Of a stretch of 64,000 bases of DNA, positions 2,451 to 52,902 are shown piece by piece (position 1 is the first letter of the stretch; every line of letters begins with the position of its first letter). Under the pieces are notes generated by a model. It did no database searches, was not told where the DNA came from, and saw only the letters and a program-made list of their open reading frames with translations. The stretch comes from a virus (Duplodnaviria; Caudoviricetes), in IMG/VR virus record IMGVR_UViG_3300017766_001583, positions 2,452 to 66,451 of that record. One strand, 5' to 3'. Position numbers and translations under genes: made by a program.

Positions 2451-4895
2451 TTAATACGCCCCCATCTGCATGTCTAATTTGTTGCATCGAGTGAATGGGC
2501 TCGGGCCACTTGCAATTGGCGAATTAAACTGAGCAAGCCAAGAGATAGCATTTGCAACATCAGCCTCAAGGCCGGGAACATCAATACAATGTGAAAGTGC
2601 AGCCCTCGCCAAGCGGGCAAATCCGTGACAAGCCGCAGCGTAGCTATCAGAAGTGATTCCTATGTTGTAATAAAAATCGCCCGCGAGTGAAACGTTTATT
2701 GTCGAAACATTTGATGAGGTTATGTAAGCGCTTGTAAATTCATCCAAAATTGAAAGACGATTTGTCTTATATAAACCGTCTAAAGGGTTTGTTAATGGAA
2801 CAACATACATTCCATATGCCATTCGCACCTGATCGTTTTGTGATGGGAATGCCCCTGCCGACCCCTCTGTCGATCCAAATCCTTGCGCAAAAAATCTAGC
2901 CTGATCCGCATGAAGAATATCAAACCCAATTCCCGAAAAAGCACTTTTTGCTTGATATAAAACTCTAGTCCAATAAGAGTCGTGAAATGGTGCCACTGCG
3001 AAAGTTTTTGTAGGATTGCTAGTATCAGCCGGGCTATTCCAGAATTGCGGAGCAGGAAATCCACTAGCAACTGCCCAGTATGATCCCGGCGAAGCGGTCG
3101 ACGAGTTAAGACTAGACCCAAGCGGATTCCATAGAGGACTCTGCACTGTACTTCCAATTATAGAAGCCCTTTTGTTTACACCGTATATGTACTCGGCGGA
3201 TGACTCGTCCCCTTGTCCAGACAGTCCTTTGGCCCCACGGTAAAATCGTGATAACTTTAGAACTAGGCCTTTGTGCCTAGCGTGCATTAGGGAATCGCTA
3301 GCAGTAAACATCGCGGAGTGAACAAATTGCCGAAGCGACCAAGCAGAACCGCGCAAGGAAGAAAAGCTAGCGTCTCCGTACATTAGCCCGTCAGTTGGAT
3401 TGGGCCCACGAGCGGCCGAACTTAACTGCATTTCTGTCCAAGCTGCTCGCCCCTCTATTGCATCGGCCGCCCATAACCTCCCGCTAACTGCTACTAATGA
3501 AAACGGGTCGTATTGATGCGCACAGTCGAGAGTCAATGAGCTTGCTTCATTGGCAACGCTATAACTCGTATTTGTTGCAACGCCGCTGCCAAAAATCATA
3601 GCGCCCGCGTTGTCGTACCAATTCATTCTGTCCGCATTGGTTGTAGATGCGTCTCGGATAAAAAGGTTTATAGATTGATTTGCCCCAAGCATTCTTTGGC
3701 TGGGCCTGCCAAATGATGTGACGTATTGACTTTTTCCAGATACACCAGATGCTATGTTTTTATTGTCAAACTCAATAAAAAAAGTCGGACGATTTAGAGA
3801 TTCTTGCGCAATAATTTTGCTGGATTCCCAAGCTCTCCAATCGCCGCCGTTTATTGCCTGATTATTTGGTTCGACAAAATAAATCGAATTGTTTCCGCCG
3901 CCAGCCGTAACCTCACGGGGCATCTCCCACGGGTCAAATGCAACACCGGGGACAGGAAGTGCAGCAGAAGACGGGATACCGACGTGAGTAGAAGAAAAGA
4001 ACCCATCTGTGCCGCCAGCATACCAAGCGTTAAGAACCTGCTCGCTGGTTGTAGATGTTGCAGAAAACCTTGGAAATACTCCGCACTCGGCAAAGTGCCG
4101 GCGGTTAATCTGTCTGTTTACTTGGATCGGCGGGGCCGTACCGATCCAACCCTCATATACCCACGACGCGCCGGAATTGCCAGACACTGAAGCCTGAGTA
4201 AATACTTGCGTATTGCCAACGTACACAGACAGCGCGTAAGACAATTGCTGCAAAGCAATGCTGCTTCCATGATTGCCGTGGCAGTGAATCCATGTACTGC
4301 CGTTTGACCACATATATGCCCAAAACTGCGGCACGAACGGTTTTACTCCGGCAAGTGGGCCTTTGTTATACCCGCCGGTTCTGTCGAATGCCCTAATAAT
4401 TGTGCAGGCCGCTCCACTTAAAACAACTTCGTATTTGTCATTATCAATCATATCCCTAAGGCTGATTGTGTCTGACCCACCTCCGGCATATGAAAGACTA
4501 ATTGTCGCGCCTGCATTACCAGCAGGAATCCGTGCCTGAATTCCGGCTTTATTAAGACCCGTACCGTTTACATTGCCGCTTGCCAGCGCTACCTGAGCGG
4601 TAGCGCCGTTTGCTAAAGATGAAACCAGACCGGCAACTAATACTGTGCGCGGCGCGTCGTTTATGTCCGTAGCCCAAACTCTAGAAGCCGTCGCAACCGG
4701 CGTGCCGTTTATAGACATTACAGGTGCATTTGTAATGCTTGATGCTTTGACCGGCAAAATTGCTACAAATGGATACTCGCTGATTGATGAGCCGGATACA
4801 TTTGTGAGCGCGATAAGATTTTCGGCAGCACCTCCCGCCGTATTAGGAGCGCCAAGGGTGTATCCAGCAGGACCGCGAAGCAGGCTAAAGACCAT
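2451..4895 (-). CDS. Large receptor-binding / putative polysaccharide-lyase-like tail protein
   Basis: 814 aa; N-terminal PFVAILPV...GTPVATASRVWATDINDAPRTVLV resembles the PcRGLX/YetA-like beta domain; aromatic-rich helical C-terminal region. Confidence 0.45.
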   Translation of the reverse strand: MVFSLLRGPAGYTLGAPNTAGGAAENLIALTNVSGSSISEYPFVAILPVKASSITNAPVMSINGTPVATASRVWATDINDAPRTVLVAGLVSSLANGATAQVALASGNVNGTGLNKAGIQARIPAGNAGATISLSYAGGGSDTISLRDMIDNDKYEVVLSGAACTIIRAFDRTGGYNKGPLAGVKPFVPQFWAYMWSNGSTWIHCHGNHGSSIALQQLSYALSVYVGNTQVFTQASVSGNSGASWVYEGWIGTAPPIQVNRQINRRHFAECGVFPRFSATSTTSEQVLNAWYAGGTDGFFSSTHVGIPSSAALPVPGVAFDPWEMPREVTAGGGNNSIYFVEPNNQAINGGDWRAWESSKIIAQESLNRPTFFIEFDNKNIASGVSGKSQYVTSFGRPSQRMLGANQSINLFIRDASTTNADRMNWYDNAGAMIFGSGVATNTSYSVANEASSLTLDCAHQYDPFSLVAVSGRLWAADAIEGRAAWTEMQLSSAARGPNPTDGLMYGDASFSSLRGSAWSLRQFVHSAMFTASDSLMHARHKGLVLKLSRFYRGAKGLSGQGDESSAEYIYGVNKRASIIGSTVQSPLWNPLGSSLNSSTASPGSYWAVASGFPAPQFWNSPADTSNPTKTFAVAPFHDSYWTRVLYQAKSAFSGIGFDILHADQARFFAQGFGSTEGSAGAFPSQNDQVRMAYGMYVVPLTNPLDGLYKTNRLSILDEFTSAYITSSNVSTINVSLAGDFYYNIGITSDSYAAACHGFARLARAALSHCIDVPGLEADVANAISWLAQFNSPIASGPSPFTRCNKLDMQMGAY

Positions 4896-27493: not shown

Positions 27494-27522
27494 TTGACAT
27501 GCAACCCCCATGCGCCCATGCT
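27494..27522 (+). promoter_or_regulatory. Sigma70-type early promoter
   Basis: TTGACA-17 bp-CATGCT just upstream of the first plus-strand gene. Confidence 0.7.
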
Positions 27523-28132: not shown

Positions 28133-28651
28133 ATGTGGTACTACGACATTTCACCCGACGCCACCCGCGCCGCCATTGTTGAACGCGACGGATCAACCGT
28201 TGCCGACGTATCCGCGCCCGCTCACACCACGGCAGAAACCAATTTCGCCGATACCCTGGCCATGATGGCCGCAGCACCTACCATGCTGGCCGCGCTTCGC
28301 GCTCTGACCGACGCCATGGCGACCGTGGCGCGGCCGGTAGAGAATTGGCCCGAGTACTCGCAGGCGCTCCGGGCAATCGCCCGCGCTACGCAACCGCTCA
28401 CGCTCGATTATGTTCAAGACTCCGGCCACGGTTGGATCGGGGTCGACTATGACATGCTCGACCGGCTCGGGATCGCGAGTGAGATCACCGAGTACTCATA
28501 CCGTGGGCCGGATCGCGCATGGCTCGAGGAAGACTGCGACGCCGGCGTCTTGATGCGCGCCTTGTCATGCGCGGGCATCGAGTACCGAATCAAAGAAAAC
28601 CACATGCACGCAATGTGGATTCGCAGCCTGCCCCGCTGGAGTAAAGCATGA
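28133..28651 (+). CDS. Early two-domain hypothetical protein
   Basis: MAAAPTMLAAL motif fused to a DSGHGWIGV...SY...LEEDCDA domain. Confidence 0.7.
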   Translation: MWYYDISPDATRAAIVERDGSTVADVSAPAHTTAETNFADTLAMMAAAPTMLAALRALTDAMATVARPVENWPEYSQALRAIARATQPLTLDYVQDSGHGWIGVDYDMLDRLGIASEITEYSYRGPDRAWLEEDCDAGVLMRALSCAGIEYRIKENHMHAMWIRSLPRWSKA

Positions 28652-28851
28652 TTTACGTCATTACCTACACCAACCGACGCGGCCATGTCGGATTTTTGGG
28701 TGGCGGCCGGTTCACCACGAAATCGGAAGCGGAGCGCACCCTGACCGACTTGCGAGAATGGGCAGAGGAAGCGGGCCGGTCGAATCTCACAGTCCGCCGG
28801 TTTAAGAACATGACCGAAGCCTGCAATTGGCGCGATGCCAACCAAGCCTAG
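28648..28851 (+). CDS. Early hypothetical protein
   Basis: 67-aa coupled ORF. Confidence 0.55.
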   Translation: MIYVITYTNRRGHVGFLGGGRFTTKSEAERTLTDLREWAEEAGRSNLTVRRFKNMTEACNWRDANQA

Positions 28852-28854
28852 TAC

Positions 28855-28900
28855 GCGAAACCCCTACGGGGGTCTGCTGGCAGCACCAGCACTGATGAGC
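28855..28900 (+). ncRNA. Type II hammerhead ribozyme
   Basis: GC-GAAA-CCCC(UACG)GGGG-UC^-UGCUGG(CAGCA)CCAGCA-CUGAUGA-GC; complete catalytic core, predicted cleavage after 28874. Confidence 0.85.
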
Positions 28901-28938
28901 AACGCCGGCCCGCTACCGGTTCACCATGGGACAAGACC

Positions 28939-29196
28939 ATGATTGGCATCGAAACCAAAGTTATTCCCGCGTCGAACACGCGCCCGCGCCGTATTTGTGC
29001 GTTCACCTGCAACGGGCACCGCATCATCCGAGCGTATGACTCGGACGCACAGTCCGACGTCCTGGCACATTTTGCGGTCGCCCAGGCACTGATCGCCGAA
29101 CAATTCGATCATCCGCTGCCCTATCAGACCATGGCCTATGGCGGCACGAAGCTCGGGTACTTTTTCTGCTGGCCTCAATCGACGGTCGGAGCCTGA
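28939..29196 (+). CDS. Early hypothetical protein
   Basis: IETKVIPASNTRPRRI motif common in small early phage proteins. Confidence 0.65.
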   Translation: MIGIETKVIPASNTRPRRICAFTCNGHRIIRAYDSDAQSDVLAHFAVAQALIAEQFDHPLPYQTMAYGGTKLGYFFCWPQSTVGA

Positions 29197-29198
29197 CC

Positions 29199-29642
29199 AT
29201 GCTCACACTCACCCAGGCCGGCATCGACCGGCTCACACTTGACACCTACGACGGGTGCGAGCCTCCCGTTTTCGTTTACTGGAACCTGCGCCGCGCCTGC
29301 TGGTCCCTGCGCGCAATGCGTGGACACAATGCCGGCCGCGTCATCGCTCACGCATCCCTGCTGACCCTGGCCGCCGTCGCGCCTAAAGTGTCGGCCGCCG
29401 GTCGCGAGCGAGTGCGCCGCGAGAATCGCAAGAATGTGCACGCCGGACTAATCGGGGTCGTTGACCTGCGCGATTCTGTCGGGATGACGCTCGACCTGCC
29501 AACTTGCGATGCCCGCATCACATATGACCCATATATGCATGACGGGTTTGTTTATTCAGACGGTCGACCGTTTAGGGCTGCACGATACGCAGTGCTGCAA
29601 ACGATCAACAATCGCGCCCGCGTGCGCGTGAGCCAGGAGTAA
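29199..29642 (+). CDS. Conserved phage hypothetical protein
   Basis: VYWNL...WSLR...VSAAGRERVRRENRKNVHA...TYDPY. Confidence 0.75.
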   Translation: MLTLTQAGIDRLTLDTYDGCEPPVFVYWNLRRACWSLRAMRGHNAGRVIAHASLLTLAAVAPKVSAAGRERVRRENRKNVHAGLIGVVDLRDSVGMTLDLPTCDARITYDPYMHDGFVYSDGRPFRAARYAVLQTINNRARVRVSQE

Positions 29643-29647
29643 CACCC

Positions 29648-30325
29648 ATGCTGTACCACTACGTCGAGCGGTCATCGAACCGCAAAACCGGCCCGATCCC
29701 GGTGGTCTACTCTGAGCGCAGCACCTGCCCGCCGTCCTGCCCGCACTACCGGTCAGACTGTTACGCGGAGGATTTTTATACGCGCCTCGCCTGGGACAAG
29801 GTAGCCCAACGCGGCGCCGAGCTGGCAATGCTTTGCGAGCGGGTCGCAGCGTTACCCGACAATCAATTGTGGCGCTTCAATATCGCGGGCGACCTCCCCG
29901 GCGAAGGTGAGGCGGTCGATCCCGTGGCCCTGGGGCATATCGTCTGGGCAAACAGGGGCAAGCGTGGCTTCACATACACGCACAAGAAAAGCCCCGACGC
30001 GATCAAATGGGCAAAGCATGCGACCGACTGGGGTTTTACGGTCAATCTGTCGGCGGATGATGCCGGCGAAGCTGACGCACTGGCCGCTCATGGGCTGCCC
30101 GTCGTTTGCATTGTGCCGACCGATAGCCCGGAGAAAAGCGCCACGCCTGGGGGCCGGCGAATTGTCGTCTGCCCCGCTCAGACACGGGAGGACGTTACAT
30201 GCGCGACCTGCGGGCTATGCGCCAGGGCGGATCGCTCCGTGATCATCGGATTCCGTGCCCACGGCACCCGTGCAAAGCTTGCAGACGCCCGCGCCCGGCG
30301 GGTCATCCCCATCACCGTGCAGTGA
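29648..30325 (+). CDS. Cys-rich putative Fe-S protein (gp88/DUF7227-like)
   Basis: SNRKTG...TCPPSCP...CYA, RFNIAGDL, FTYTH, CPAQ..TCATCGLC, IGFRAHG. Confidence 0.65.
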   Translation: MLYHYVERSSNRKTGPIPVVYSERSTCPPSCPHYRSDCYAEDFYTRLAWDKVAQRGAELAMLCERVAALPDNQLWRFNIAGDLPGEGEAVDPVALGHIVWANRGKRGFTYTHKKSPDAIKWAKHATDWGFTVNLSADDAGEADALAAHGLPVVCIVPTDSPEKSATPGGRRIVVCPAQTREDVTCATCGLCARADRSVIIGFRAHGTRAKLADARARRVIPITVQ

Positions 30326-30335
30326 TAGGGTCGCA

Positions 30336-30384
30336 CGTACAGGGCCGCGTGCGGTTCTGTGCGGGCAATCCTGCCCACCTGGAG
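30336..30384 (+). promoter_or_regulatory. Two-hairpin leader element, copy A (upstream of acrIII-1)
   Basis: CGTACAG-GGCC...GGTT-CTGTGCG then GGGCA-ATCC-TGCCC then GGAG. Confidence 0.6.
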
Positions 30385-30390
30385 AACATT

Positions 30391-30717
30391 ATGCAATTCA
30401 TCAGTAACGCTTTTTCGCTCGGCATGGTGCCCAGGCACTTGCTGCGTACAGTGCGGGTGACCCCGTGCGAGCGCCCCGAGCTGTCAGGGTTGTGGTCTGT
30501 TGTCGGCCATGCCGACACCGCGCAGGTTCTCGGTGTCCCGTTCAATCGGGCAAGCGTCACCCTGCAAGCGGGTGATGTTCTGTACGTCGCGCAATTGCGC
30601 GGCGGCCGCCTGCCCGAGGGATCAACAACCCTGCCCGAGGGATTCGGGTTTGATTGGTGCCGGGTCGAGGTCGCGGGGGTTATCTCGCAGGCCGAGGCTC
30701 TGCTGGCGAGCCTGTAA
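30391..30717 (+). CDS. acrIII-1: AcrIII-1-like viral ring nuclease (DUF1874/STIV B116 family)
   Basis: ISNAFSLGM, SVVGHADT (catalytic His), FNR, GDVLYVAQL, RLPEG; GGAG RBS before ATG 30391. Confidence 0.85.
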   Translation: MQFISNAFSLGMVPRHLLRTVRVTPCERPELSGLWSVVGHADTAQVLGVPFNRASVTLQAGDVLYVAQLRGGRLPEGSTTLPEGFGFDWCRVEVAGVISQAEALLASL

Positions 30718-30739
30718 CCCCATCACCTGGGAGAACATC

Positions 30740-30982
30740 ATGCCATTCGCAGCACGTTACCCTGGTCAGTGCGCCCGCACTGGCACCCCTATCAAAATAG
30801 GCGACCCGATTGTATCGGTCGGTCGCAACCGTTACGCGCACGCCACGCTAAGCACGCCAGCGACACGCGACGATGATCGGTACATCTCCCATATTTGGCG
30901 CTTGTCGTCCGGCAAAGAGCTGTACCGGAACAAGGCCGGCCGATGCGAAGACGCGCCATGCTGCGGGTGCTGCAATGTCTAG
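30740..30982 (+). CDS. Small Cys-rich early protein
   Basis: ARYPGQCARTG...RCEDAPCCGCC; GGGAG RBS. Confidence 0.7.
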   Translation: MPFAARYPGQCARTGTPIKIGDPIVSVGRNRYAHATLSTPATRDDDRYISHIWRLSSGKELYRNKAGRCEDAPCCGCCNV

Positions 30983-31699: not shown

Positions 31700-31749
31700 C
31701 GTACAGCCCCTGTACGCGGGGGTTGTGCGGGCAATCTTGCCCCATAGGA
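31700..31749 (+). promoter_or_regulatory. Two-hairpin leader element, copy B
   Basis: CGTACAG-CCCC...GGGG-TTGTGCG then GGGCA-ATCT-TGCCC then GGAG. Confidence 0.6.
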
Positions 31750-31756
31750 GAAGACA

Positions 31757-31855
31757 ATGTACGAAGAGGATATTGCCCTGTGGAAGGGTCTGCTGTTAGG
31801 TGCCGGCCTGGGGCTGGCGTTCTGGCTTGTTGTTGTGTTCCTTTTCACCCTTTGA
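31757..31855 (+). CDS. 32-aa single-pass membrane peptide (absent from the ORF track)
   Basis: MYEEDIALWKGLLLGAGLGLAFWLVVVFLFTL; GGAG RBS. Confidence 0.6.
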   Translation: MYEEDIALWKGLLLGAGLGLAFWLVVVFLFTL

Positions 31856-43205: not shown

Positions 43206-43559
43206 ATGAAACCGATCCAGCTTGTCTTGCCCTGGCCTCCGAGCGTTAACAATTACTGGTTGCAGCGAGGCACGGCTAGGTTCATTGGTGCCAAGGGCAA
43301 AGCGTTCCGCAAGGCCGTCGCAGAAGAGTGCGCGGCCCAGGGGATCGTTGCTTTGGAGGGCAGGCTATCGATGCATGTGACCATGTGGCCACCGGATCGA
43401 CGCCGTCGGGATATCGATAACCCGATGAAGGCTTTGCTAGATGCCTGCGAACATGCCGGGTGCTACGAGGACGATGGGCAGATCGATGAGTTGCACATCG
43501 TCCGCCAAGAAGTGTATCGAGGCGGACGGTGCGTGATCATGATCTTGCCTATTCGGTAA
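43206..43559 (+). CDS. rusA: RusA Holliday junction resolvase
   Basis: LPWPPSVNNYW...PPDRRRRDIDN..KALLD...DDGQID. Confidence 0.9.
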   Translation: MKPIQLVLPWPPSVNNYWLQRGTARFIGAKGKAFRKAVAEECAAQGIVALEGRLSMHVTMWPPDRRRRDIDNPMKALLDACEHAGCYEDDGQIDELHIVRQEVYRGGRCVIMILPIR

Positions 43560-46500
43560 GAGCTTCTTGGCGCCTCACGTTTTTAAACGTTTCTACCCGC
43601 AGCTCTTTGATTGGTGCCAACAACTCATTGCGTAGTCTTTGCATTTCTACGATTTCTTTCCTGCGCGCTTGCGGAGTCGTGGTTTTGTCCTTCGATTCGC
43701 CCAACCTTCTGATCTCTGAATTGATTTCTTTAAGCTCTTCTTCGGTTTCGCTAATGTATTCGTACATGCCATCAATGTCGCCGTGCTTCTCGATGTATTT
43801 GTCGGCGGCTTTGTAGTCTTCTCGCTCGATAAGTTTTTTCAGAGTTTCGTGTTTTTCCATGACGATTTCTTTGAAGTCATAGAACAGGTCTTCGTTACCG
43901 CGAGGCACTTCCTCTCGCTTGAACGAACCGGTGATGGGCATCTCGCGAGGAGAAGGGGCCGGTCGAGTAGACGCTTCGATGCTGTTGCTAACCCACTGAG
44001 CCATAGCGCCAGCCGTTCCGAACAATCCGCGAACAATGTGATCCGCCTCCATCGGGTTCAGAGCGCGCTTACTTGTGCCTGGGATGGCCGTCATGGCACT
44101 GAGCTTCTTGCCAAGCTCTGAGGTGCTGGCCACGTATTGTTGCGCTGCCTCTACTCCTTCAACAGACTGAGGAGTGATCTGGCGACCAGTAAAGAAGCTG
44201 TGGTTGATCCCTACCTCCAAAAGCGTTTTGACTCCAGCAGGAATCGGCTCAGGCCCAAGCAATGCATCGCGAGCAAACTCTGCCAACGCTCTACGAAGAC
44301 GCCGCGCATCGTTCTCATTCTTGGTCCCATCTCTGGTGATCTTGTTGTAGATCAGCTCAGGGATGGCCTTGAAGATAAGAGCGGCACTGGTGTTGATCGG
44401 CATCACGATCTTGGTGCCAGGGATCATGATGTTGCGCAGCTTAGTTTGATCGTCCAGCTCATCGTACTCAGGATCGCCGCCAGCCAACATGCAATAAAGA
44501 ATCGTCAAAGTAGACAGCGTAGTCGCGGCAACGGCCAACCGAGCGATTGCTTTCTTGCGGCTCATGCCTTTAAGGCCGCCGCCCTGAAGGCTATTGAGAA
44601 GCACATCAGTCGAGTTCATCCAGGCGCCAATAAATGGCACTGTCTTCACCGCGGCTTGGGCAAACCCAGCGGAGCCATGATGCATGAAGTTAATGACATT
44701 TGCTGCTTGATACAGCGCCTGGGTTTGATCGCCGGTTTCAGCCATGACGCGCTTGTAGACGCCAACGCGCTGAGCCATATCGGAAGAGTCGCCAATGTGA
44801 TCCAACGTTTTGATTACCGCTGAATACACGTTGCGATTCATGATCCCCAGGCGCCGCTTGATCTCGGCCTCCGGGGTACGAGCTGGGCTATGGAATCCAC
44901 CAATACCAGCGGCTTTCAAGATGTCAATCACCGGATCAACGTTGACGCCAGCTTTCTTCATCCCAGGCTGAATAAGGCTAGTCAGGAAGCCTTTCCAAAC
45001 GCCACCGATCAGAGCGATAGGATTGCGAACGCCAGTCACCAGGGCGGCAGTCGGAGCGTCCTTGAACACCTGCTTCACTTGGAACACGCCAGACAGCGTC
45101 ACCCCTCGCCGAGTGAAGTTGGCGACCGCGGCCATCGGCGCCCACATTCTGAGGTTGATGTTCTCCATCCCGTAGATCGAGGCAACGACAACCGGATCTT
45201 GAATCTGAACAACAACCTTCTTGCCATTCACCATCCAGTTGAACTTGCCCTCTTCTGGATTGACTGACGGATAGACGCGGATCTTTCCTTCTGCGTTACG
45301 AACAGCGTACTCAAGCACGATCCTGTTCGATGCAAACTGCCGGATCCCGTTCATCGTCATACGCATAACGTTGCGCGTCATGTTGTCGATGATGTTCTGG
45401 ATCTCGCGGTTGGTTTCAAACGTCACCAAGTCGCCGGCTTCCAAAGCCATGTTGATGCGGACATCGCCTTGAGGTGTGGCCGTCACCAAGTCTGGGCTAA
45501 TCCGCTTGCCGTTGACCTTCACCTTAACCACAGAGGTCGGCTGGATCTTGAAGTCCTGTTGACCAGCAGTAGCGATGATATCCACTACATTGCGGGGACG
45601 GCCGCTCTTGAACAGTTTCTCCCGGCCAATGTTAACCAGCGACCGAGTCGTTGACTGAACAGCTTGCCCAGCAGAGTGAATGTCCTCGTCGTCATTCATG
45701 ATCCGATACCAAGGCACATAGTCCTTGATAGCAGACAGAGTTTCATACCGACCTTGAGATATTAGGCCGACCTGACGCCAGACTCTCAGCAGGTTTTGAT
45801 TGACCGCCGTCCAGTTATCCATAAGCGTGCGCAGCTCAGGATGCTTTTCATCCAGCGCAGCAAACTCATACATCTCCTCTTCGGACATGTTGACTGAGGA
45901 GGCGGCCCTGTTGATTGCTTCCAGATCGACCTTCAGATCATCGACTGCTTTCTTGGCCTCGGCAATATCTTCTGGAGGCGCCATCATCGCTTCCATTGCC
46001 TCAAGATTTTGCTCGGCTCTCTCTAGCGCATCAGTCCGCTCGCGCAGCTCATCCATGATGCTGATCGAACGCTTGGCCTCCAAATAACCCTGAACAATGT
46101 CAGTACCGAGCTGATTCCCAAGGCGCTTCTTGATTGCCGCTTCAGCTTCGTAAACGCCACGCATCCCAAGGTCGCGCTTGACTGCAACAAAGTTACCAAG
46201 CGCTGCGTTGTACTCAAGGCCGCCGCTGAAAATCACTTCAACACCAATGTTGCCGCTACGGATCGCGTTGTCGAGTGCAACAGACGACGTAACAATGTCG
46301 GCACTTGTGCGCAACTGTCCTTGGTAACGGGCAAAGTCCCGAGACTCTAGACCAGCGCCGTACCAAGAAGTCAGGTTACGTGCATTCAGGAGGGCATCGG
46401 TGACATTCCGTTCGGCAGCGGCAGCGGTTTGAATCGGACTTGTGACGGCGTCGGTTACAAAGTCTTTGCCGTTCGTATATGCATTGGTCAGTAAGGTCAG

Positions 46501-49500
46501 GACCGGAGAGTTGTCCAGCATCGGCGTATGCGGCCGGCTGTACCGCTGCATCAGGTCTTGCTCGTCCTGGGTGTTCATCGACATGCTGCTGGCGCGATCT
46601 TGCTCGCTCACATCTCGCGCCTCAACAGCGGCCGCAACGTTTTCGCTTGATTGAATATCAACCAGATTATCTGGACGCCACTTGCCCGCCCGTCGCTGAC
46701 CGCCATCAAAGTAACGAATCTCTACAGGGATGTATTCAACCCCCTCGGCCAAAGCCGCCATGATTCGATGGTTGCCTTCGCTAATCCATGGCACGCCATC
46801 AAACCCAACCTCAATGTATGGAACGTATTCGCCAGACTCTTCAATCGGGAACCGGCCTGTTTCACTGATGATCTTGCGAATAGCAGCAAGGTCTTTTTCG
46901 CGGACGTTCTGTTGTTCGCCGCGCTCTCCCTTTACATCGGTAAACCATCTTGTCGGCACGTACACCGGCCCGCTAAAGTACCCAGTAATCGACCCCATGT
47001 GCGGGACGCCAAACTGATTTCTGGGTTTCTGCATGGCGTACTTAATCTTGCCATCCAGCCACCCTTCGTTTGGAATGTCTTCTTGAAACTTAGCCGTTGG
47101 CTGAATGCTAGGCGCCCCCGTATCCGTCGACATGAAGTATTCTGTGTCGTCTTCATCAGGCGTCAGCACAGGCGGCTGAGCGGTAACGCGATCCATGTAC
47201 TGCGCAAACGTTTCGTCTGGCAAGTACTTGCGAGCTTTCAGTTGCTGATAGAAACGGCGAAGCTGATTGCCGAGCCTCTTGAAGAACTTCTCAACAGCAG
47301 TAACAGGCACCTTGTTGGATACTGCCCAACGTGCTGTTTGGTCGGCGTACCATTCTTCAAACTTACGCCAGTATGGCGGCAGCTCTTCGCCCTTTTGAGT
47401 CGGCGCTGCTTTAACTCGTCGCTGCCCTATGGCGCGACCACGCATAGAGTTAATTACTTCTTGTGCGGTCTTGGTTTTGTGAGTATCAAGCCACTTTTGA
47501 TGCGCGTCTTTTAGAGCCTTCTTGTCTGCTTCGCTGGCTCTTTCATAAACAGTTTTTTGATGAACGTGCCCAAGTTCATGAGCAAGAATCTCAAGCATGA
47601 ATGTTGGGCTAGTAGACTTGGTGAACAAGATGTAATGACTACCATCTGGCATCAGCCTTGTTGAGCCAAGATCATTTCGGTTTAATGTTCCAGACCCGAC
47701 CCTTCGGTGCGGACCGGTGTAATCGTTTTTATGAAGCCGAGCGTCTTCGATAGTCGCGATATAGATTGGAACGTCAAGCTTTAGCAGCTTCTTCCACTCG
47801 CGAACGATGCCTTCAATCTCAGGGGATACGCTCTCTGAAACAGCAACGCCATCCACAAACTTAATGAATGGGTTAGCCTTGTGTTTTTCCGCGGCGTCTT
47901 GCTCGGCCTTCTTTTTGGCCTCAATCATCTCCTGCTTGATGCTTGGGCTAACGCCGGTTCCGGTGTATTTCTCAATATCCTTTATGGAGCGTTGCCTGCC
48001 AAACGTAGCAACATAAACAGGGTCGCCGGTTTTATCGTCATAGGCGCGGATTAAAGCGTTGTCGCCTTTTCTCCAAACGATTTCTCCGCCAGTATCCCTG
48101 GCGTGACCCGCCGCGTTCTTTTTGTATGCCGCCTCAAGCTCTTTCTCAAACTCTGTTTCTTCTTTGGCTTCCGGCTCCGCCGCCTTCGGCTGCTCGGCAG
48201 GAATTGCCTGCAAGTATTTGCCAAACTGGCTACGTTGACTTCCAATGCCGCCGCTGGTGACGTTGATGCTGGCATCTTTGGAGATGACGCCATCTTCTTG
48301 CAGTCTTGCAACCGCTGCTCGCATGACCCGTTGGTACTGTTTGCCACCAACGATCAAGACATCTTTAATGCCATCTGGCCAGTCGATACTGTCCATGTCC
48401 CTTTGCAAAGTCAGAAGAAACTCTTCCGCTTTTTCTGGGGTCATAACCTGATCGTATGGCTCGATCTCTTTAGTTGGTTCAATGAACCCGTGCTTTGCCG
48501 ACAGGATGACAATGTTCGGTTCGGCGCCGCTCTTCTGGTTGCTTTTAAGCGTTTGGAAAAATACGCCCTTGTAAAGCTCCATGGCAGGAGCCTTCGCATC
48601 GCCTTTGGTATCGCAGCATGGCATCAATACCAATCGGTTCTTAGCAGGCAAGTCTGGATCAACAGGCTTGCCATTCACCACCTTATCGCCGGCCGCCTCT
48701 AGGGCTTCTGCCTGCTTTTTCTGATCATACGCAATCAAGTCTCTTCGACGCGACAACTCTGCCGGTGTCAAGACTTTGCCAGGAGTCTTTGCCGCGGCTT
48801 CCATTTCTTTGCGAGCCTGCCGAATGTTTGCAGGCTCAACTTCTTTGGGTTTTGCCGCTGGCTTTTCAGCTTTTGTTGCCCGCGGTTTTTTGGCAGGCTT
48901 TTCCAATTTTGCAAACGGTTCGGAAGGCAAGCCTAATTTGCTAATTGGGTTGTTATAAAACTCTGCGGCTGCCTTGTCATAAGCCTTTTCCTCGGCCAAG
49001 AATTCTTCTTTGCTGATCTTGTTGTCGCGATAATCAGCCATGGCTTGGACAAGACGCTCGCCTGCTTTGCGATAAATCCCTAATGCCGCCTGATACTCGG
49101 CGGTCCGGGCGTCCTCGCCAGTCTTAATCTCTGGCTCAGAAACATCTTCTGCTGGCTTTTCGGCTCTTGCTTCTCGCAGCTTCTTGACGCGCTCTTCCTT
49201 GGTTTCTGTAGGCTCAGTAGGCTCGTTAAGCTTGCGAATCGTTTCGCTAAACTTTACCGATTCCTTGTTATATTCCTCTTGTGCGGCTGCAAGTTCTTCT
49301 TTGCTAATCTCTTTGTTGCGATAAGCGGACTCAGCCTTTCCAAGCCGCTCGGTTGCTCTGCGAAGCGGCTCATATGCCGCTTGATACCCTGGGGACGGCG
49401 CGTTCTCGCCAGTAAATAGGTCGCCAGTAGGAGCGGCCTGCTCTTCAGATGGGGGCGCCGTCAGCCCAAACAGATCGACCTCTCGATCCGCGATTACCTT

Positions 49501-52500
49501 GCGCTCCTTCTCTTCTTTCTCTGCCGCTTCCTTATCTTCCCTGGCCTGACGCTCAGCCTCGGACTCGGAGGTCAGCTCAAACGGCGTTGCACCAATGGCT
49601 TCTCTGATCTCGGCGATTGCCTCGGAGTTGCTGTGCCAGTTGTCCCACTTAGCCTTGAGTTGCCTAAGCTCGGCCTCCCGGCGCTTCACCGCATCGAGAT
49701 CATTGACGTTGATGCCCTCTGCCTTGGCAAGCTCTGGGCGCTTGGCCACTCCGCTAATAGCAGACAGCCGGTTCTGTACTTCGCGCTGCTTCTTGGCGGC
49801 ATAGTCCGCCATGGCCGCGGCTTCTTCCAGGGCAGCAGTGTCATCACCAAAGATGTCTCGCGTGGTACCGCGCAAGCCACCGCTAGACATAACCCTCACG
49901 GCCTGCATGAGGTTGGTGGCCATGTTGATGGACTTGCCATCAAGCACGGCCTTCATGCCTACGCCTTGGAGCTTCGCATCGTTGGGGGCGTTGAGGGCGA
50001 TGTAGAACGCATCGTTGTCGGTGATTTGATCGGCTCTAAGCGACTCGATGAGTTCATCGCTGCCTTGATTTCCGATTGTGAAACCCCGCTTGCCCTTATC
50101 CCTTGCCAGAAATCCTTTTGACTCGGCGGTTTCCCGGTCCATGCCGCTTTCTTTGAAGTAGTTGACATAGTCCTTTACCTGTCCTTGATCGTCGCGAACG
50201 TTAAGTTCCGCGTCCTTGATGGCCGCGTCTTTTGCTGTGAACCCCTGGCTTTCGTAATAGACTTGCGCCGGAATTGTTTCTTCGCCGCTACGCTTTGCCA
50301 GATCAAACCGGTGCCGGCCAGAGATCACCTCAAGCGATCCGTCTAGTCTTTGCCACACGGCAATAGGAGCAAGTCCTTCTCTAGAGAACTTGCCACCCAG
50401 GGGTTTAACAACCCCCCTTTTGTCCGCCCCGTACTTAAACTGCGGCACATCTTCCGACAGTCTCAGCATCTTGATCGGCACATCTACGCTTGGCAGATCG
50501 GCATCTTGATGTTGCGGCGCTGCCGGCTCAAATGGTTTGACCGGCTTGACCGGCGCTACCGTTGGCGTGTCGGGAAGTCGAGCGGCGGCAGTGGTCGGGG
50601 CGACCGATCCTTTGAATGACGGGCCTTTGCCGGCCGGAGTGAAGGGCAGCTCGCCGGTAGCAGCGGCACCAGTAACAGGTGTTACTGGTGGAGCTTCGGC
50701 GGCAGGAGCGGTGCGAGTAACAGGTGTTACTGGCAGCTCTTCAATCTCATCGCCCGTTGGCATTCCTGGCACAACAGGTACAGTCGTTGGGGCTGCGGGC
50801 GTGGCTGGCGCTCCCCCCATCGTTGGCTCGACACGCTCACCCGGAGTGGGCGGCAGGGGGCCGGCTCCGATTGTAGGTTCGACGCGGCCAGGGCGTTCTG
50901 GGGCGACAAAATCTGCACTGATAGTCGGCTCAGTCCGGCCGGCACGTACTGTTTGCGTACCATCGACCGCGGACTGCGCTCGCAATCCCGCCATGGTCGG
51001 CTCAACTCTTTCTGCGTCTTTCCCAATGGCGCGAGCAACCGCCATCTTGGAGCTTACTGCCGGCAGAACCTTCTCAGAAAAGGCACGCTCTGACTTGCTT
51101 GCGCCATAGATTGCCGCATTAGACGCACCGGACTGGATGACCGTCTGCCTCAGTGTTTCGGCGGCTTGCTCCATGTAGTCTTTAAGTCCGGCGTTCTGAT
51201 TGAGGCCGAGACCAGGAAGTTTGTCTACAAGGAATTGCGACAGAGTGGTTGCTTGTTCAGAAGGGATCTCTTTAAGGAAAGCCGCCGTAAGGTAACCAGA
51301 CAGGTCTTTGGTTGGGACTCTATCAATCACCCCGCGAATAGCCTTGAGCTGATCGCCCAGGCCATAACGCTCAAACAGAATCTCCGACACAGCCATCAGG
51401 CCAGCTCTAGATCCCGCCTCGTTTGGCTTCAGTCCGGCACTGCGACCTTGCCCGTAGTTTTGCGAGAACACTTCAATGCCAGCCTGCGCCAACACTGGGA
51501 GAGCCGTTCCGGTCATCGCCCCAAGAACCATCATGGGCGCTTGGCCGCCGAGACTTGCAATGGCTTGCTGTGCAGACCGCTCCGCTATGCTATCGCCTTT
51601 GGGAATCGCCTCGCCCTTGGCAGTCTCAAGCTTGCGGTAATACGATAGATTCTTTTGCAGCTCATTGTCGCCGGCTACGTCTGCATAGATTTGCGCCAGA
51701 CCAAGACCAGTTTGCCTAGCTCTTGTGCCAATCTCTGCGCCAACGCGAGCGCCAAATCCAGCGCCTTCCATTTTTTGCTTGACTTGCTGTCCCGCAAGAG
51801 CCGCCTGCTCGGCAGCTACATCTCGCACCGCGGATGGCAAAACTTGAGGAGTAACGCCTCGACGCAGTGACTGCGCAGCCCATGCTTTCGCAGACTGCGG
51901 ATCCATCCCGCCTTTGACCTCAAGCTTTCTGGCTTGGGCCTCCAGCCTGGGATCAAATACTTGCTGAGCTTCAGGCGTCAGCTTGTCCATCGCCTGATAC
52001 CGACCCTGAATGTCCCTGGCTGCTCGGCCATACGCATCGTTGCGCTGTACCAGTCTGGCCAGCACTTTGTCGCGAGACTCTTTCGGAACGGCGTTGAGTT
52101 CTGTCTCTACAGCCTGGATAAACTTTGGATCGACAACGTAACGCTCGGCACTAGGCAACGGCTCTTGCTTGCCCTGTCCAGCGACATAGCCGGCCATGAC
52201 TGACTCGGGCTTTTTGATTGGTTGCCCACGCCCGCCAATAGCACTCCACTTCTCTGGAGTCATCTTCGCTTGAATCGTATTAGCCGGCTTTTGCGAATCC
52301 GCGACAGGCTGAGGAATCGTATTAGCCGGCTTTTGCGAATCTGTGGCTGGCTGCGCTGCGGCCGGCACATCAAACTGGTCAAACGGATTTGGCGTAGCCT
52401 TCTGTGGCTCAGCCTTCCTTGCGCTCTGTCCAAGCCCCATGTTCACCCCGGCGCTAATACTTTCGGGTGTGAACGTAGAACCAAAAGCTCTCTGCCCCTT

Positions 52501-52902
52501 CTCTTGAACGCCAATAGCAGTGATGAGCTTAGACATCACCGCTGGGTCTTGCATGTTCAGCGGAGCATTGGGATCAACGCCAAGCGCCCTCGATACATTG
52601 GCAATGTATGCGGCAGTCGGGTTGTTGTCCGACGGCGGCGCCCAGGTAGAGATGATCTTGGATACGGTATTGATACCGCGCTTGTTGTATGCCAACAGGT
52701 TTTGAACGTTGGCCGCTACCCCTTCTTCCGGTGACGCAAACGAACGGAACTGCGAGCTTCCAACTTCTCGCAGGTTTCCTACGTTGTATGGGTTTGGGCC
52801 TGTTGGCCTTGGCGCTTTTGGCGCGTCGAATTGATCAAACGGATTGGCAGTCGGAACTGGCGCAGGCTTCGGGTCGAATTGATCAAACGGATTCGCGGCC
52901 AT
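43549..52902 (-). CDS. 3117-aa polyvalent internal virion (DNA ejection) protein
   Basis: Lysozyme-like domain (GNL...WAPPSDNNPTAAY), ParB-like VISGRHR and SEGNHR, DUF6884-like ILSAKHG, HELGH zincin, LPD38-like C-terminus. Confidence 0.85.
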   Translation of the reverse strand: MAANPFDQFDPKPAPVPTANPFDQFDAPKAPRPTGPNPYNVGNLREVGSSQFRSFASPEEGVAANVQNLLAYNKRGINTVSKIISTWAPPSDNNPTAAYIANVSRALGVDPNAPLNMQDPAVMSKLITAIGVQEKGQRAFGSTFTPESISAGVNMGLGQSARKAEPQKATPNPFDQFDVPAAAQPATDSQKPANTIPQPVADSQKPANTIQAKMTPEKWSAIGGRGQPIKKPESVMAGYVAGQGKQEPLPSAERYVVDPKFIQAVETELNAVPKESRDKVLARLVQRNDAYGRAARDIQGRYQAMDKLTPEAQQVFDPRLEAQARKLEVKGGMDPQSAKAWAAQSLRRGVTPQVLPSAVRDVAAEQAALAGQQVKQKMEGAGFGARVGAEIGTRARQTGLGLAQIYADVAGDNELQKNLSYYRKLETAKGEAIPKGDSIAERSAQQAIASLGGQAPMMVLGAMTGTALPVLAQAGIEVFSQNYGQGRSAGLKPNEAGSRAGLMAVSEILFERYGLGDQLKAIRGVIDRVPTKDLSGYLTAAFLKEIPSEQATTLSQFLVDKLPGLGLNQNAGLKDYMEQAAETLRQTVIQSGASNAAIYGASKSERAFSEKVLPAVSSKMAVARAIGKDAERVEPTMAGLRAQSAVDGTQTVRAGRTEPTISADFVAPERPGRVEPTIGAGPLPPTPGERVEPTMGGAPATPAAPTTVPVVPGMPTGDEIEELPVTPVTRTAPAAEAPPVTPVTGAAATGELPFTPAGKGPSFKGSVAPTTAAARLPDTPTVAPVKPVKPFEPAAPQHQDADLPSVDVPIKMLRLSEDVPQFKYGADKRGVVKPLGGKFSREGLAPIAVWQRLDGSLEVISGRHRFDLAKRSGEETIPAQVYYESQGFTAKDAAIKDAELNVRDDQGQVKDYVNYFKESGMDRETAESKGFLARDKGKRGFTIGNQGSDELIESLRADQITDNDAFYIALNAPNDAKLQGVGMKAVLDGKSINMATNLMQAVRVMSSGGLRGTTRDIFGDDTAALEEAAAMADYAAKKQREVQNRLSAISGVAKRPELAKAEGINVNDLDAVKRREAELRQLKAKWDNWHSNSEAIAEIREAIGATPFELTSESEAERQAREDKEAAEKEEKERKVIADREVDLFGLTAPPSEEQAAPTGDLFTGENAPSPGYQAAYEPLRRATERLGKAESAYRNKEISKEELAAAQEEYNKESVKFSETIRKLNEPTEPTETKEERVKKLREARAEKPAEDVSEPEIKTGEDARTAEYQAALGIYRKAGERLVQAMADYRDNKISKEEFLAEEKAYDKAAAEFYNNPISKLGLPSEPFAKLEKPAKKPRATKAEKPAAKPKEVEPANIRQARKEMEAAAKTPGKVLTPAELSRRRDLIAYDQKKQAEALEAAGDKVVNGKPVDPDLPAKNRLVLMPCCDTKGDAKAPAMELYKGVFFQTLKSNQKSGAEPNIVILSAKHGFIEPTKEIEPYDQVMTPEKAEEFLLTLQRDMDSIDWPDGIKDVLIVGGKQYQRVMRAAVARLQEDGVISKDASINVTSGGIGSQRSQFGKYLQAIPAEQPKAAEPEAKEETEFEKELEAAYKKNAAGHARDTGGEIVWRKGDNALIRAYDDKTGDPVYVATFGRQRSIKDIEKYTGTGVSPSIKQEMIEAKKKAEQDAAEKHKANPFIKFVDGVAVSESVSPEIEGIVREWKKLLKLDVPIYIATIEDARLHKNDYTGPHRRVGSGTLNRNDLGSTRLMPDGSHYILFTKSTSPTFMLEILAHELGHVHQKTVYERASEADKKALKDAHQKWLDTHKTKTAQEVINSMRGRAIGQRRVKAAPTQKGEELPPYWRKFEEWYADQTARWAVSNKVPVTAVEKFFKRLGNQLRRFYQQLKARKYLPDETFAQYMDRVTAQPPVLTPDEDDTEYFMSTDTGAPSIQPTAKFQEDIPNEGWLDGKIKYAMQKPRNQFGVPHMGSITGYFSGPVYVPTRWFTDVKGERGEQQNVREKDLAAIRKIISETGRFPIEESGEYVPYIEVGFDGVPWISEGNHRIMAALAEGVEYIPVEIRYFDGGQRRAGKWRPDNLVDIQSSENVAAAVEARDVSEQDRASSMSMNTQDEQDLMQRYSRPHTPMLDNSPVLTLLTNAYTNGKDFVTDAVTSPIQTAAAAERNVTDALLNARNLTSWYGAGLESRDFARYQGQLRTSADIVTSSVALDNAIRSGNIGVEVIFSGGLEYNAALGNFVAVKRDLGMRGVYEAEAAIKKRLGNQLGTDIVQGYLEAKRSISIMDELRERTDALERAEQNLEAMEAMMAPPEDIAEAKKAVDDLKVDLEAINRAASSVNMSEEEMYEFAALDEKHPELRTLMDNWTAVNQNLLRVWRQVGLISQGRYETLSAIKDYVPWYRIMNDDEDIHSAGQAVQSTTRSLVNIGREKLFKSGRPRNVVDIIATAGQQDFKIQPTSVVKVKVNGKRISPDLVTATPQGDVRINMALEAGDLVTFETNREIQNIIDNMTRNVMRMTMNGIRQFASNRIVLEYAVRNAEGKIRVYPSVNPEEGKFNWMVNGKKVVVQIQDPVVVASIYGMENINLRMWAPMAAVANFTRRGVTLSGVFQVKQVFKDAPTAALVTGVRNPIALIGGVWKGFLTSLIQPGMKKAGVNVDPVIDILKAAGIGGFHSPARTPEAEIKRRLGIMNRNVYSAVIKTLDHIGDSSDMAQRVGVYKRVMAETGDQTQALYQAANVINFMHHGSAGFAQAAVKTVPFIGAWMNSTDVLLNSLQGGGLKGMSRKKAIARLAVAATTLSTLTILYCMLAGGDPEYDELDDQTKLRNIMIPGTKIVMPINTSAALIFKAIPELIYNKITRDGTKNENDARRLRRALAEFARDALLGPEPIPAGVKTLLEVGINHSFFTGRQITPQSVEGVEAAQQYVASTSELGKKLSAMTAIPGTSKRALNPMEADHIVRGLFGTAGAMAQWVSNSIEASTRPAPSPREMPITGSFKREEVPRGNEDLFYDFKEIVMEKHETLKKLIEREDYKAADKYIEKHGDIDGMYEYISETEEELKEINSEIRRLGESKDKTTTPQARRKEIVEMQRLRNELLAPIKELRVETFKNVRRQEALTE
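50669..50731. repeat. Two AGTAACA-GG-TGTTACT palindromes within the giant gene
   Basis: At 50671-50686 and 50716-50731; encode PVTPVT. Confidence 0.8.

Follow-up and report, generated by a model that had tools for sequence, protein, structure and literature searches.

The question raised by this locus is whether a short motif in the gap between two phage genes is a genuine self-cleaving RNA, and what it could do there when a tertiary contact common in its class is missing. Sequence comparison and folding indicate that it is probably a genuine type II hammerhead ribozyme carried on a cassette of about 80 nt, and that the RNA of the surrounding operon would cut itself, its two halves becoming separate RNAs.

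The source is an uncultured phage. The window, that is, the whole stretch of 64,000 nt that was analysed, is taken from a 66,451-bp IMG/VR record (bases 2452-66451), which is complete and has direct terminal repeats. The genome encodes TerL, portal, major head protein, helicase, a Toprim protein and a polyvalent protein, and its TerL is closest to those of the HTVC023P-type pelagiphages (~55% identical). The ribozyme lies within a block of small ORFs on the + strand, an accessory operon at about 27.5-32 kb, which is flanked by terS and a Toprim gene, both on the opposite strand. Within this block two co-directional genes are separated by 87 nt, and the ribozyme lies between them on their strand, 3 nt from the upstream stop codon and 38 nt from the next start codon. 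The coordinates of the features are collected in Table 1.

Table 1. Features of the hammerhead locus and its surroundings, in window coordinates.
Feature	Position	Strand	Basis or remark
67-aa ORF upstream of the ribozyme, stop TAG 28849-28851	28648-28851	+	ORF list
~80-nt hammerhead cassette	28853-28930	+	blastn block common to sibling contig L165 (7259-7338)
Type II hammerhead ribozyme	28855-28900	+	Read directly; first base 3 nt past the stop codon
Stem II 5' strand, G11.2 and C11.1	28855-28856	+	Pairs with C28900 and G28899; read directly
Core G12 A13 A14 (GAA)	28857-28859	+	Direct reading and Rfam alignment
Stem III, 5 bp (A15.1-U16.1 plus CCCC/GGGG)	28860-28873	+	A28860-C28864 paired with G28869-U28873
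Stem III loop UACG	28865-28868	+	Read directly
C17 / U1.1, predicted scissile bond	28874/28875	+	From the hammerhead consensus (PMC3088659)
Stem I hairpin UGCUGG-CAGCA-CCAGCA, 6 bp	28875-28891	+	28875-28880 paired with 28886-28891
Loop I CAGCA, 5 nt	28881-28885	+	Read directly
Core C3 U4 G5 A6 U7 G8 A9 (CUGAUGA)	28892-28898	+	Direct reading and Rfam alignment
Stem II 3' strand, G10.1 and C10.2	28899-28900	+	Read directly
3' tail: AAC linker, hairpin GCCGG-CCCGCUA-CCGGU (28904-28920), then UCAC	28901-28924	+	Folding
85-aa ORF downstream, first gene on the 3' cleavage product	28939-29196	+	ORF list
Second copy of the tail hairpin, GCCGGC-AUCG-ACCGGCUCAC plus TCAC	29217-29236	+	2 matches vs 0.01 expected; fold z = -2.8
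3117-aa polyvalent protein	43549-52902	-	DUF6884 (residues 1425-1530), LPD38 (2810-2990)

The gene upstream of the ribozyme had no Pfam or PHROG match. Beyond the 85-aa ORF lie an L5 gp82-like gene (PF25735), which had originally been named gp88-like, and a DUF7227 gene. Further downstream, the ORF at 30391-30717 (108 aa) had been proposed as acrIII-1, and it does match PF08960 (the STIV B116-like, AcrIII-1 ring-nuclease family), although at 17.5 bits the match is below the cut-off of 26. The start of this ORF at 30391 is supported by a repeated leader and by a PHROG match that begins at residue 65 of the longer frame. The leader, about 36 nt long, occurs before three genes of the operon (30358-30393, 30707-30742 and 31724-31759) and consists of a hairpin, GGGCA-AUCY-UGCCC, followed by GGAGAA and ATG (repeat family D1). 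The operon was also considered as an N4-like "early operon"; this was rejected because the 3117-aa ORF is the polyvalent protein (LPD38, DUF6884) and not a virion RNA polymerase. A promoter scan called no sigma-70-type site on the + strand, and a TTGACA sequence is visible at 27494-27499. No tRNAs were found, no other Rfam family matched the operon, and the operon segment had no DNA match among cultured phages. When the cassette itself was compared with cultured phages, there were weak matches to seven records (E 0.05-0.2), all in unannotated stretches of Streptomyces phages, which cover only cassette positions 3-52 and exclude the tail.

Base-by-base reading showed that all of the hammerhead invariants are present: C3-A9, G12-A14, A15.1-U16.1, C17, G10.1-C11.1 and U1.1-A2.1. 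The pairs that flank the core are formed by A28860-U28873, G28899-C28856 and U28875-A28891, and the H17 position at the cleavage site is C28874. The motif is of type II, as it has loops on stems I and III and its open end at stem II. A longer stem II was considered and rejected, as the flanking UAC and AAC do not pair, leaving 2 bp only. The coordinates and cut position given in the original prediction were right throughout, as was its description of the structure, namely a core of CUGAUGA, GAAA and GUC with a C(UACG)G-capped stem III, a 6-bp stem I and a 2-bp stem II.

The covariance model for type II hammerheads (Rfam RF02276, Hammerhead_II) matched window positions 28853-28908 over its full length (1-66) with a cmscan score of 33.7 bits. 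E-values were low. Searched against all 4227 Rfam families, the 4.9-kb operon gave 3.8e-4, and a 361-nt segment gave 2.8e-5 against all families. Against this family alone, the value for the 66-kb genome as a whole was 1.2e-6. The score is 3.3 bits short of the gathering score of 37 bits, which is a threshold set by the curators rather than a biological feature, and so a default Rfam scan reports nothing for this copy. The cmscan alignment places both stem II pairs one position too far out relative to the canonical C11.1-G10.1 and G11.2-C10.2, with C28854-C28900 flagged as non-canonical and G28855 placed opposite G28899. This offset in the stem II annotation probably costs the window copy some score.

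By chance, a window would contain 0.38 matches to the bare core pattern if no stems are required. When a descriptor requiring the stems was used, the real site was the sole match in the window, and 300 dinucleotide-preserving shuffles gave no match with stems of at least 4/4 bp and one match with at least 3/3 bp. The total folding energy was indistinguishable from that of shuffled sequence (z about 0), as expected because the DNA is GC-rich. The RF02276 searches found a single match in the operon and the same number in the 66-kb genome. In other words, the clustering of several ribozymes around genes described in 2011 by Perreault et al. was not seen in this genome.

A second copy of the hammerhead was found in the nearest relative. 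The 85-aa gene occurs in eight viral contigs, and the hammerhead accompanies it only in the closest of these (L165, also listed as L002), in which the protein is 92% identical. Versions of the 85-aa protein that are 94% and 89% identical were also found (P0001 and P0002). The sibling hammerhead in L165 scored 37.5 bits, above the gathering score. By blastn, the window and L165 share just two blocks, the gene (85% identity) and the 80-nt cassette (86% identity), and all of the remaining flanking DNA is unrelated. Furthermore, the order of the two blocks is swapped: the hammerhead is directly downstream of the 85-aa gene in L165 and upstream of it in the window.

The differences between the two copies were examined position by position. 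The sole difference in the core is at N7, a free position, where U is replaced by C in the sibling. In stem I the pair U28878-A28888 becomes A-U, a compensatory change, and in the tail hairpin a G-U pair becomes G-C. Stem III of the sibling (CCCGC-UCCG-GCGGG) has one extra G-C pair, and its loop changes from UACG to UCCG, both of which are UNCG loops; loop I differs at two bases. RNAalifold, applied to both copies, gave a consensus of stem III, stem I and the tail hairpin in which no pair is broken and two pairs have changed on both strands. The confinement of the differences to loops, N7 and pair-preserving changes is the pattern predicted by selection on the hammerhead fold, although conservation of structure based on two sequences gives modest support. 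Conservation of the tail taken separately (1 change in 26 nt) was estimated not to be significant against a divergence of ~15% (P about 0.1). Taken together, the RF02276 match, the shuffles, the sibling copy and the consensus fold bear out the earlier call of a type II hammerhead in a phage intergenic gap.

Most type II hammerheads have a pseudoknot between loop I and the 3' tail. Among 86 distinct sampled copies, 26 have a 2-bp stem II, and 24 of these have a pseudoknot of at least 4 bp; the two exceptions are the window copy and its sibling. An exhaustive viral scan of copies with an AAC linker gave the same result on the pseudoknot. In the window no loop I/tail pairing of at least 4 bp was found, the best being 3 bp (AGC/GCU, in the loop of the tail hairpin), and the best in the sibling is 2 bp. 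The original prediction had itself voiced this concern, that the tertiary contacts which a very short stem II may need are absent. Perreault et al. reported that removal of the pseudoknot lowered cleavage more than 100-fold at 0.5 mM Mg2+, and that shortening it cost 20-fold to more than 100-fold in rate at the same concentration (PMC3088659). Since they describe it for "a majority" of type II hammerheads, its presence is not a defining trait of the class. With the pseudoknot missing, the window copy may cleave slowly or incompletely, unless the tail hairpin makes up for it.

This hairpin takes the place of the usual pseudoknot strand. Following the AAC linker, GCCGG pairs with a CCGGU that lies seven bases further on. 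A hairpin immediately after stem II was seen in only 2 of 111 sampled type II hammerheads, again the window copy and its sibling. Such a hairpin also arose in 4 of 111 shuffled tails, and it could therefore have begun by chance. With the full tail included, the minimum-energy fold of both copies has three hairpins and is compatible with the hammerhead. Several alternative roles for the tail were considered and rejected. Pairing of the tail with the 5' strand of stem I is the minimum-energy fold only when the 3' partner within the tail is cut off; in the sibling this pairing is interrupted by an internal mismatch, and it vanishes once the full tail is folded. Loop I and the loop of the tail hairpin could form a kissing contact of 3 bp in the window and 2 bp in L165, and these pairs do not covary. 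The tail also resembles 29682-29703 within the DUF7227 gene (D8) over 22 nt, which is attributable to chance, as an estimated ~2.5 such matches are expected per 4.8 kb. It is possible, if rather doubtful, that the tail hairpin is a natural replacement for the pseudoknot, which would stack on stem II, block invasion of stem I and keep the ribozyme active.

A hammerhead on a 94-kb viral contig (IMGVR_UViG_3300017991_000010, listed as L150/L174; 41.3 bits) provides the most direct comparison. It has the same core and the same tail, CUGAUGAGC-AAC-GCCGG, as the window copy, and its stem I (UGCAGG/CCUGCA) is identical to that of the sibling. In this contig, however, the GCCGG of the tail pairs with a CCGGC in a 13-nt loop I, forming a classic pseudoknot, whereas in the window the CCGGY partner is 3' of the tail strand, and the resulting hairpin is local and unconnected to stem I. 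The shared tail suggests a helix that persisted through the relocation of its second strand, out of loop I and to the 3' side. The pattern CTGAYGAGCAACGCCGG was found at 35 loci in viral contigs, nearly all of them coding (LMSNAG motif); as candidates for further hammerheads these loci were rejected, because hammerheads were found only in L150 and L165.

A loose-pattern search yielded a broader sample of more than 120 viral loci, with both stems present in 129 of 166 matches. Same-strand ORFs end within 40 nt upstream of 85 of the 99 distinct type II copies (median gap 4 nt), and a Shine-Dalgarno sequence and start codon follow within 80 nt in 74 of the 99 (median 23 nt). The window copy, with gaps of 3 nt and 38 nt, is in a typical place. 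Some viral contigs hold 5-10 copies. Dense type II arrays were also observed, with 10 hammerheads in ~2.8 kb of one contig (L111:200-3030, - strand) and 4-6 in each of three others (L046, L060 and L128), and the hammerheads of these arrays each directly precede a Shine-Dalgarno sequence and start codon. A large group of prophage-like contigs of ~33-40 kb (L280, L282, L288-L290, L294-L297, L299, L303, L307, L309, L314-L316 and L323) shares a pseudoknotted hammerhead with the tail AACCRAAYGA, followed by the palindrome TCTGGGCCCAGGTC.

Distribution among related phages was examined as well. The hammerhead was absent from 9 of 10 other related fragments and from 50 records with TerL proteins 68-93% identical, including three complete genomes. 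This indicates that the phage lineage does not need the element. In the closest relative that retains the region (L277, listed as G009; TerL 93% identical), the spot between a 172-aa gene and the DUF7227 gene is variable: window positions 28651-29648 are replaced by ~530 nt of unrelated DNA (3912-4441), which lacks the 67-aa ORF, the hammerhead, the 85-aa gene and the gp82-like gene. Absence from the 59 related records, together with the variable spot, indicates that the hammerhead is a sporadic, recently moved cassette and not a feature of the lineage.

The second copy of the tail hairpin begins 21 nt after the stop codon of the 85-aa gene and lies within the first 23 codons of the gp82-like ORF. 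Homologues of the gp82-like protein match residues 24-137 only, and the N-terminal stretch that holds the hairpin is missing from them. The two hairpin copies, at 28904-28924 and 29217-29236, bracket the 85-aa gene as a direct repeat; there are two copies in the phage genome and one in the sibling. The bracketing hairpins and the swapped order in the sibling suggest an ancestral unit of hammerhead, gene and hammerhead, or recombination at the hairpin.

From these observations a course of events at the locus can be proposed. We infer transcription, cleavage, the rate of cleavage and its effect on RNA stability from sequence. On transcription, stem III, stem I and the tail hairpin would fold as three successive hairpins, and GC at 28855-56 would pair with GC at 28899-900 and close the core. 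The operon transcript would then most likely be cut after C28874, between that base and U28875. The upstream product, with four small ORFs, would end in the stable C(UACG)G hairpin of stem III with a 2',3'-cyclic phosphate. The downstream product, with the 85-aa gene, the gp82-like gene, DUF7227 and the later genes, would begin with a 5'-OH flush at the base of the stem I hairpin. Both ends should resist the 3' exonucleases and the 5'-end-dependent RNase E of bacterial mRNA decay. The two halves of the operon would thus be separate RNAs, whose decay and translation could differ. Stabilisation of the downstream mRNA by its 5'-OH, as suggested in the original prediction, is plausible, if in part too simple a view, and would depend on the host.

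Three other explanations of the locus were weighed against a selected, self-cleaving hammerhead. That the motif is a chance match in GC-rich DNA might be argued from the expected frequency of the bare core and from a folding energy no better than that of shuffles, but this is so improbable as to be negligible: with stems required none of the 300 shuffles matched at 4/4 bp, the E-value was 1.2e-6 for the genome, and an independent sibling shows compensatory changes. The genome E-value, the shuffles, the sibling and its consensus fold have already effectively refuted this reading. The same sibling bears on whether the copy is crippled or decaying, a pseudoknotted ancestor having lost its loop I partner, so that the RNA would keep its sequence signature but cleave too slowly at cellular Mg2+ to matter, as a passenger. 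The absent pseudoknot, the 5-nt loop I, the score below the gathering score and the sporadic distribution all fit such decay, as does the L150 hammerhead, which has the same tail and the sibling's stem I and retains the 13-nt loop I with its CCGGC partner, and the pseudoknot is critical for fast cleavage (PMC3088659). We nevertheless regard decay as unlikely. The two copies, ~14% diverged, keep every essential core base, and their differences, lying in loops, at N7 and in pair-preserving changes, indicate that the fold remained under selection once the pseudoknot had gone; stable UNCG loops cap stem III in both, and minimal hammerheads without tertiary contacts cleave too, if more slowly.

The bracketing hairpins give rise to an explanation at the level of DNA, in which the tail hairpin (GCCGG...CCGGYTCAC) marks a boundary where small gene modules recombine or move, and the hammerhead travels along with it. 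This would account for the direct repeats around the 85-aa gene, for the exchange of cassette and gene relative to the sibling amid unrelated DNA, and for the different DNA that lies between the 172-aa gene and DUF7227 in the closest relative retaining this part. However, no transposase, integrase or homing nuclease adjoins the locus, the hairpin is present in just two copies here and one in the sibling, and the intact ribozyme core and compensatory changes would be left unexplained. We therefore consider this quite improbable as the explanation of the locus, though a role in DNA could hold alongside ribozyme activity. A genuine, probably active type II hammerhead remains the preferred reading.

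This copy is one more among thousands of hammerheads known between phage genes, and the class is not news, having been known in phages since 2011. The role of phage hammerheads is unproven in general, and this locus leaves that unchanged. As a copy below the gathering score, it shows what default annotation misses. Among the type II hammerheads sampled, only the window copy and its sibling combine a 2-bp stem II with the lack of a pseudoknot, and their fold is still conserved, so that the pair could show, as a natural experiment, how much tertiary stabilisation a cellular hammerhead requires. The swapped order of ribozyme and 85-aa gene, with the bracketing hairpins, provides a concrete small case of ribozymes moving between gene junctions.

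The known systems most like this one are the type II hammerheads described by Perreault et al. in 2011 (PMC3088659) and represented by RF02276. These are common in prophages and flank genes, and their stem II is often 2 bp, with a function that is unproven. The window copy shares their identical catalytic core, the 2-bp stem II, and the setting: phage genes of the same direction lie close on either side, with a stop codon just upstream of the ribozyme and a ribosome-binding site following it. It differs in that it has no pseudoknot, a loop I of 5 nt and a 5-bp tail hairpin, a combination that its sibling alone shares among the 111 sampled type II hammerheads, and in that it is a single copy rather than part of an array. 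For three type II hammerheads of D. vulgaris that lie beside phage-like genes, Olzog et al. reported cleavage in vivo (PMC8782182).

The glmS ribozyme is similar in its consequences. There too, according to the account given in PMC3328962, self-cleavage puts a 5'-OH on the downstream mRNA and this end decides the fate of the mRNA. It is, however, a ribozyme of another class and depends on a metabolite, and its 5'-OH is destabilising, the opposite of what was originally suggested for the phage: in B. subtilis the 5'-OH of the glmS product marks the RNA for decay by RNase J1 (Collins et al. 2007, as described in PMC3328962). Because a 5'-OH triggers decay in hosts with RNase J, on that account, the direction of any effect on the phage mRNA would depend on the host.

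The type I and type III hammerheads of viroids and satellite RNAs offer a structural comparison, since a tail hairpin stacked on stem II would resemble the closed stem-loop II of those ribozymes. Such a surrogate stem-loop II, with 2+5 bp and a 7-nt loop, would stand beside a stem-loop I of 6 bp with a 5-nt loop, lengths that would allow loop-loop contact, and the tail hairpin might touch loop I in this way. In contrast to types I and III, the helix in the window would be nicked and broken by the AAC linker, and no covarying loop-loop pairs were seen. If the tail hairpin does act as a surrogate, the window copy and its sibling would be a case of hammerheads switching topology in nature between the pseudoknot type and the loop-loop type.
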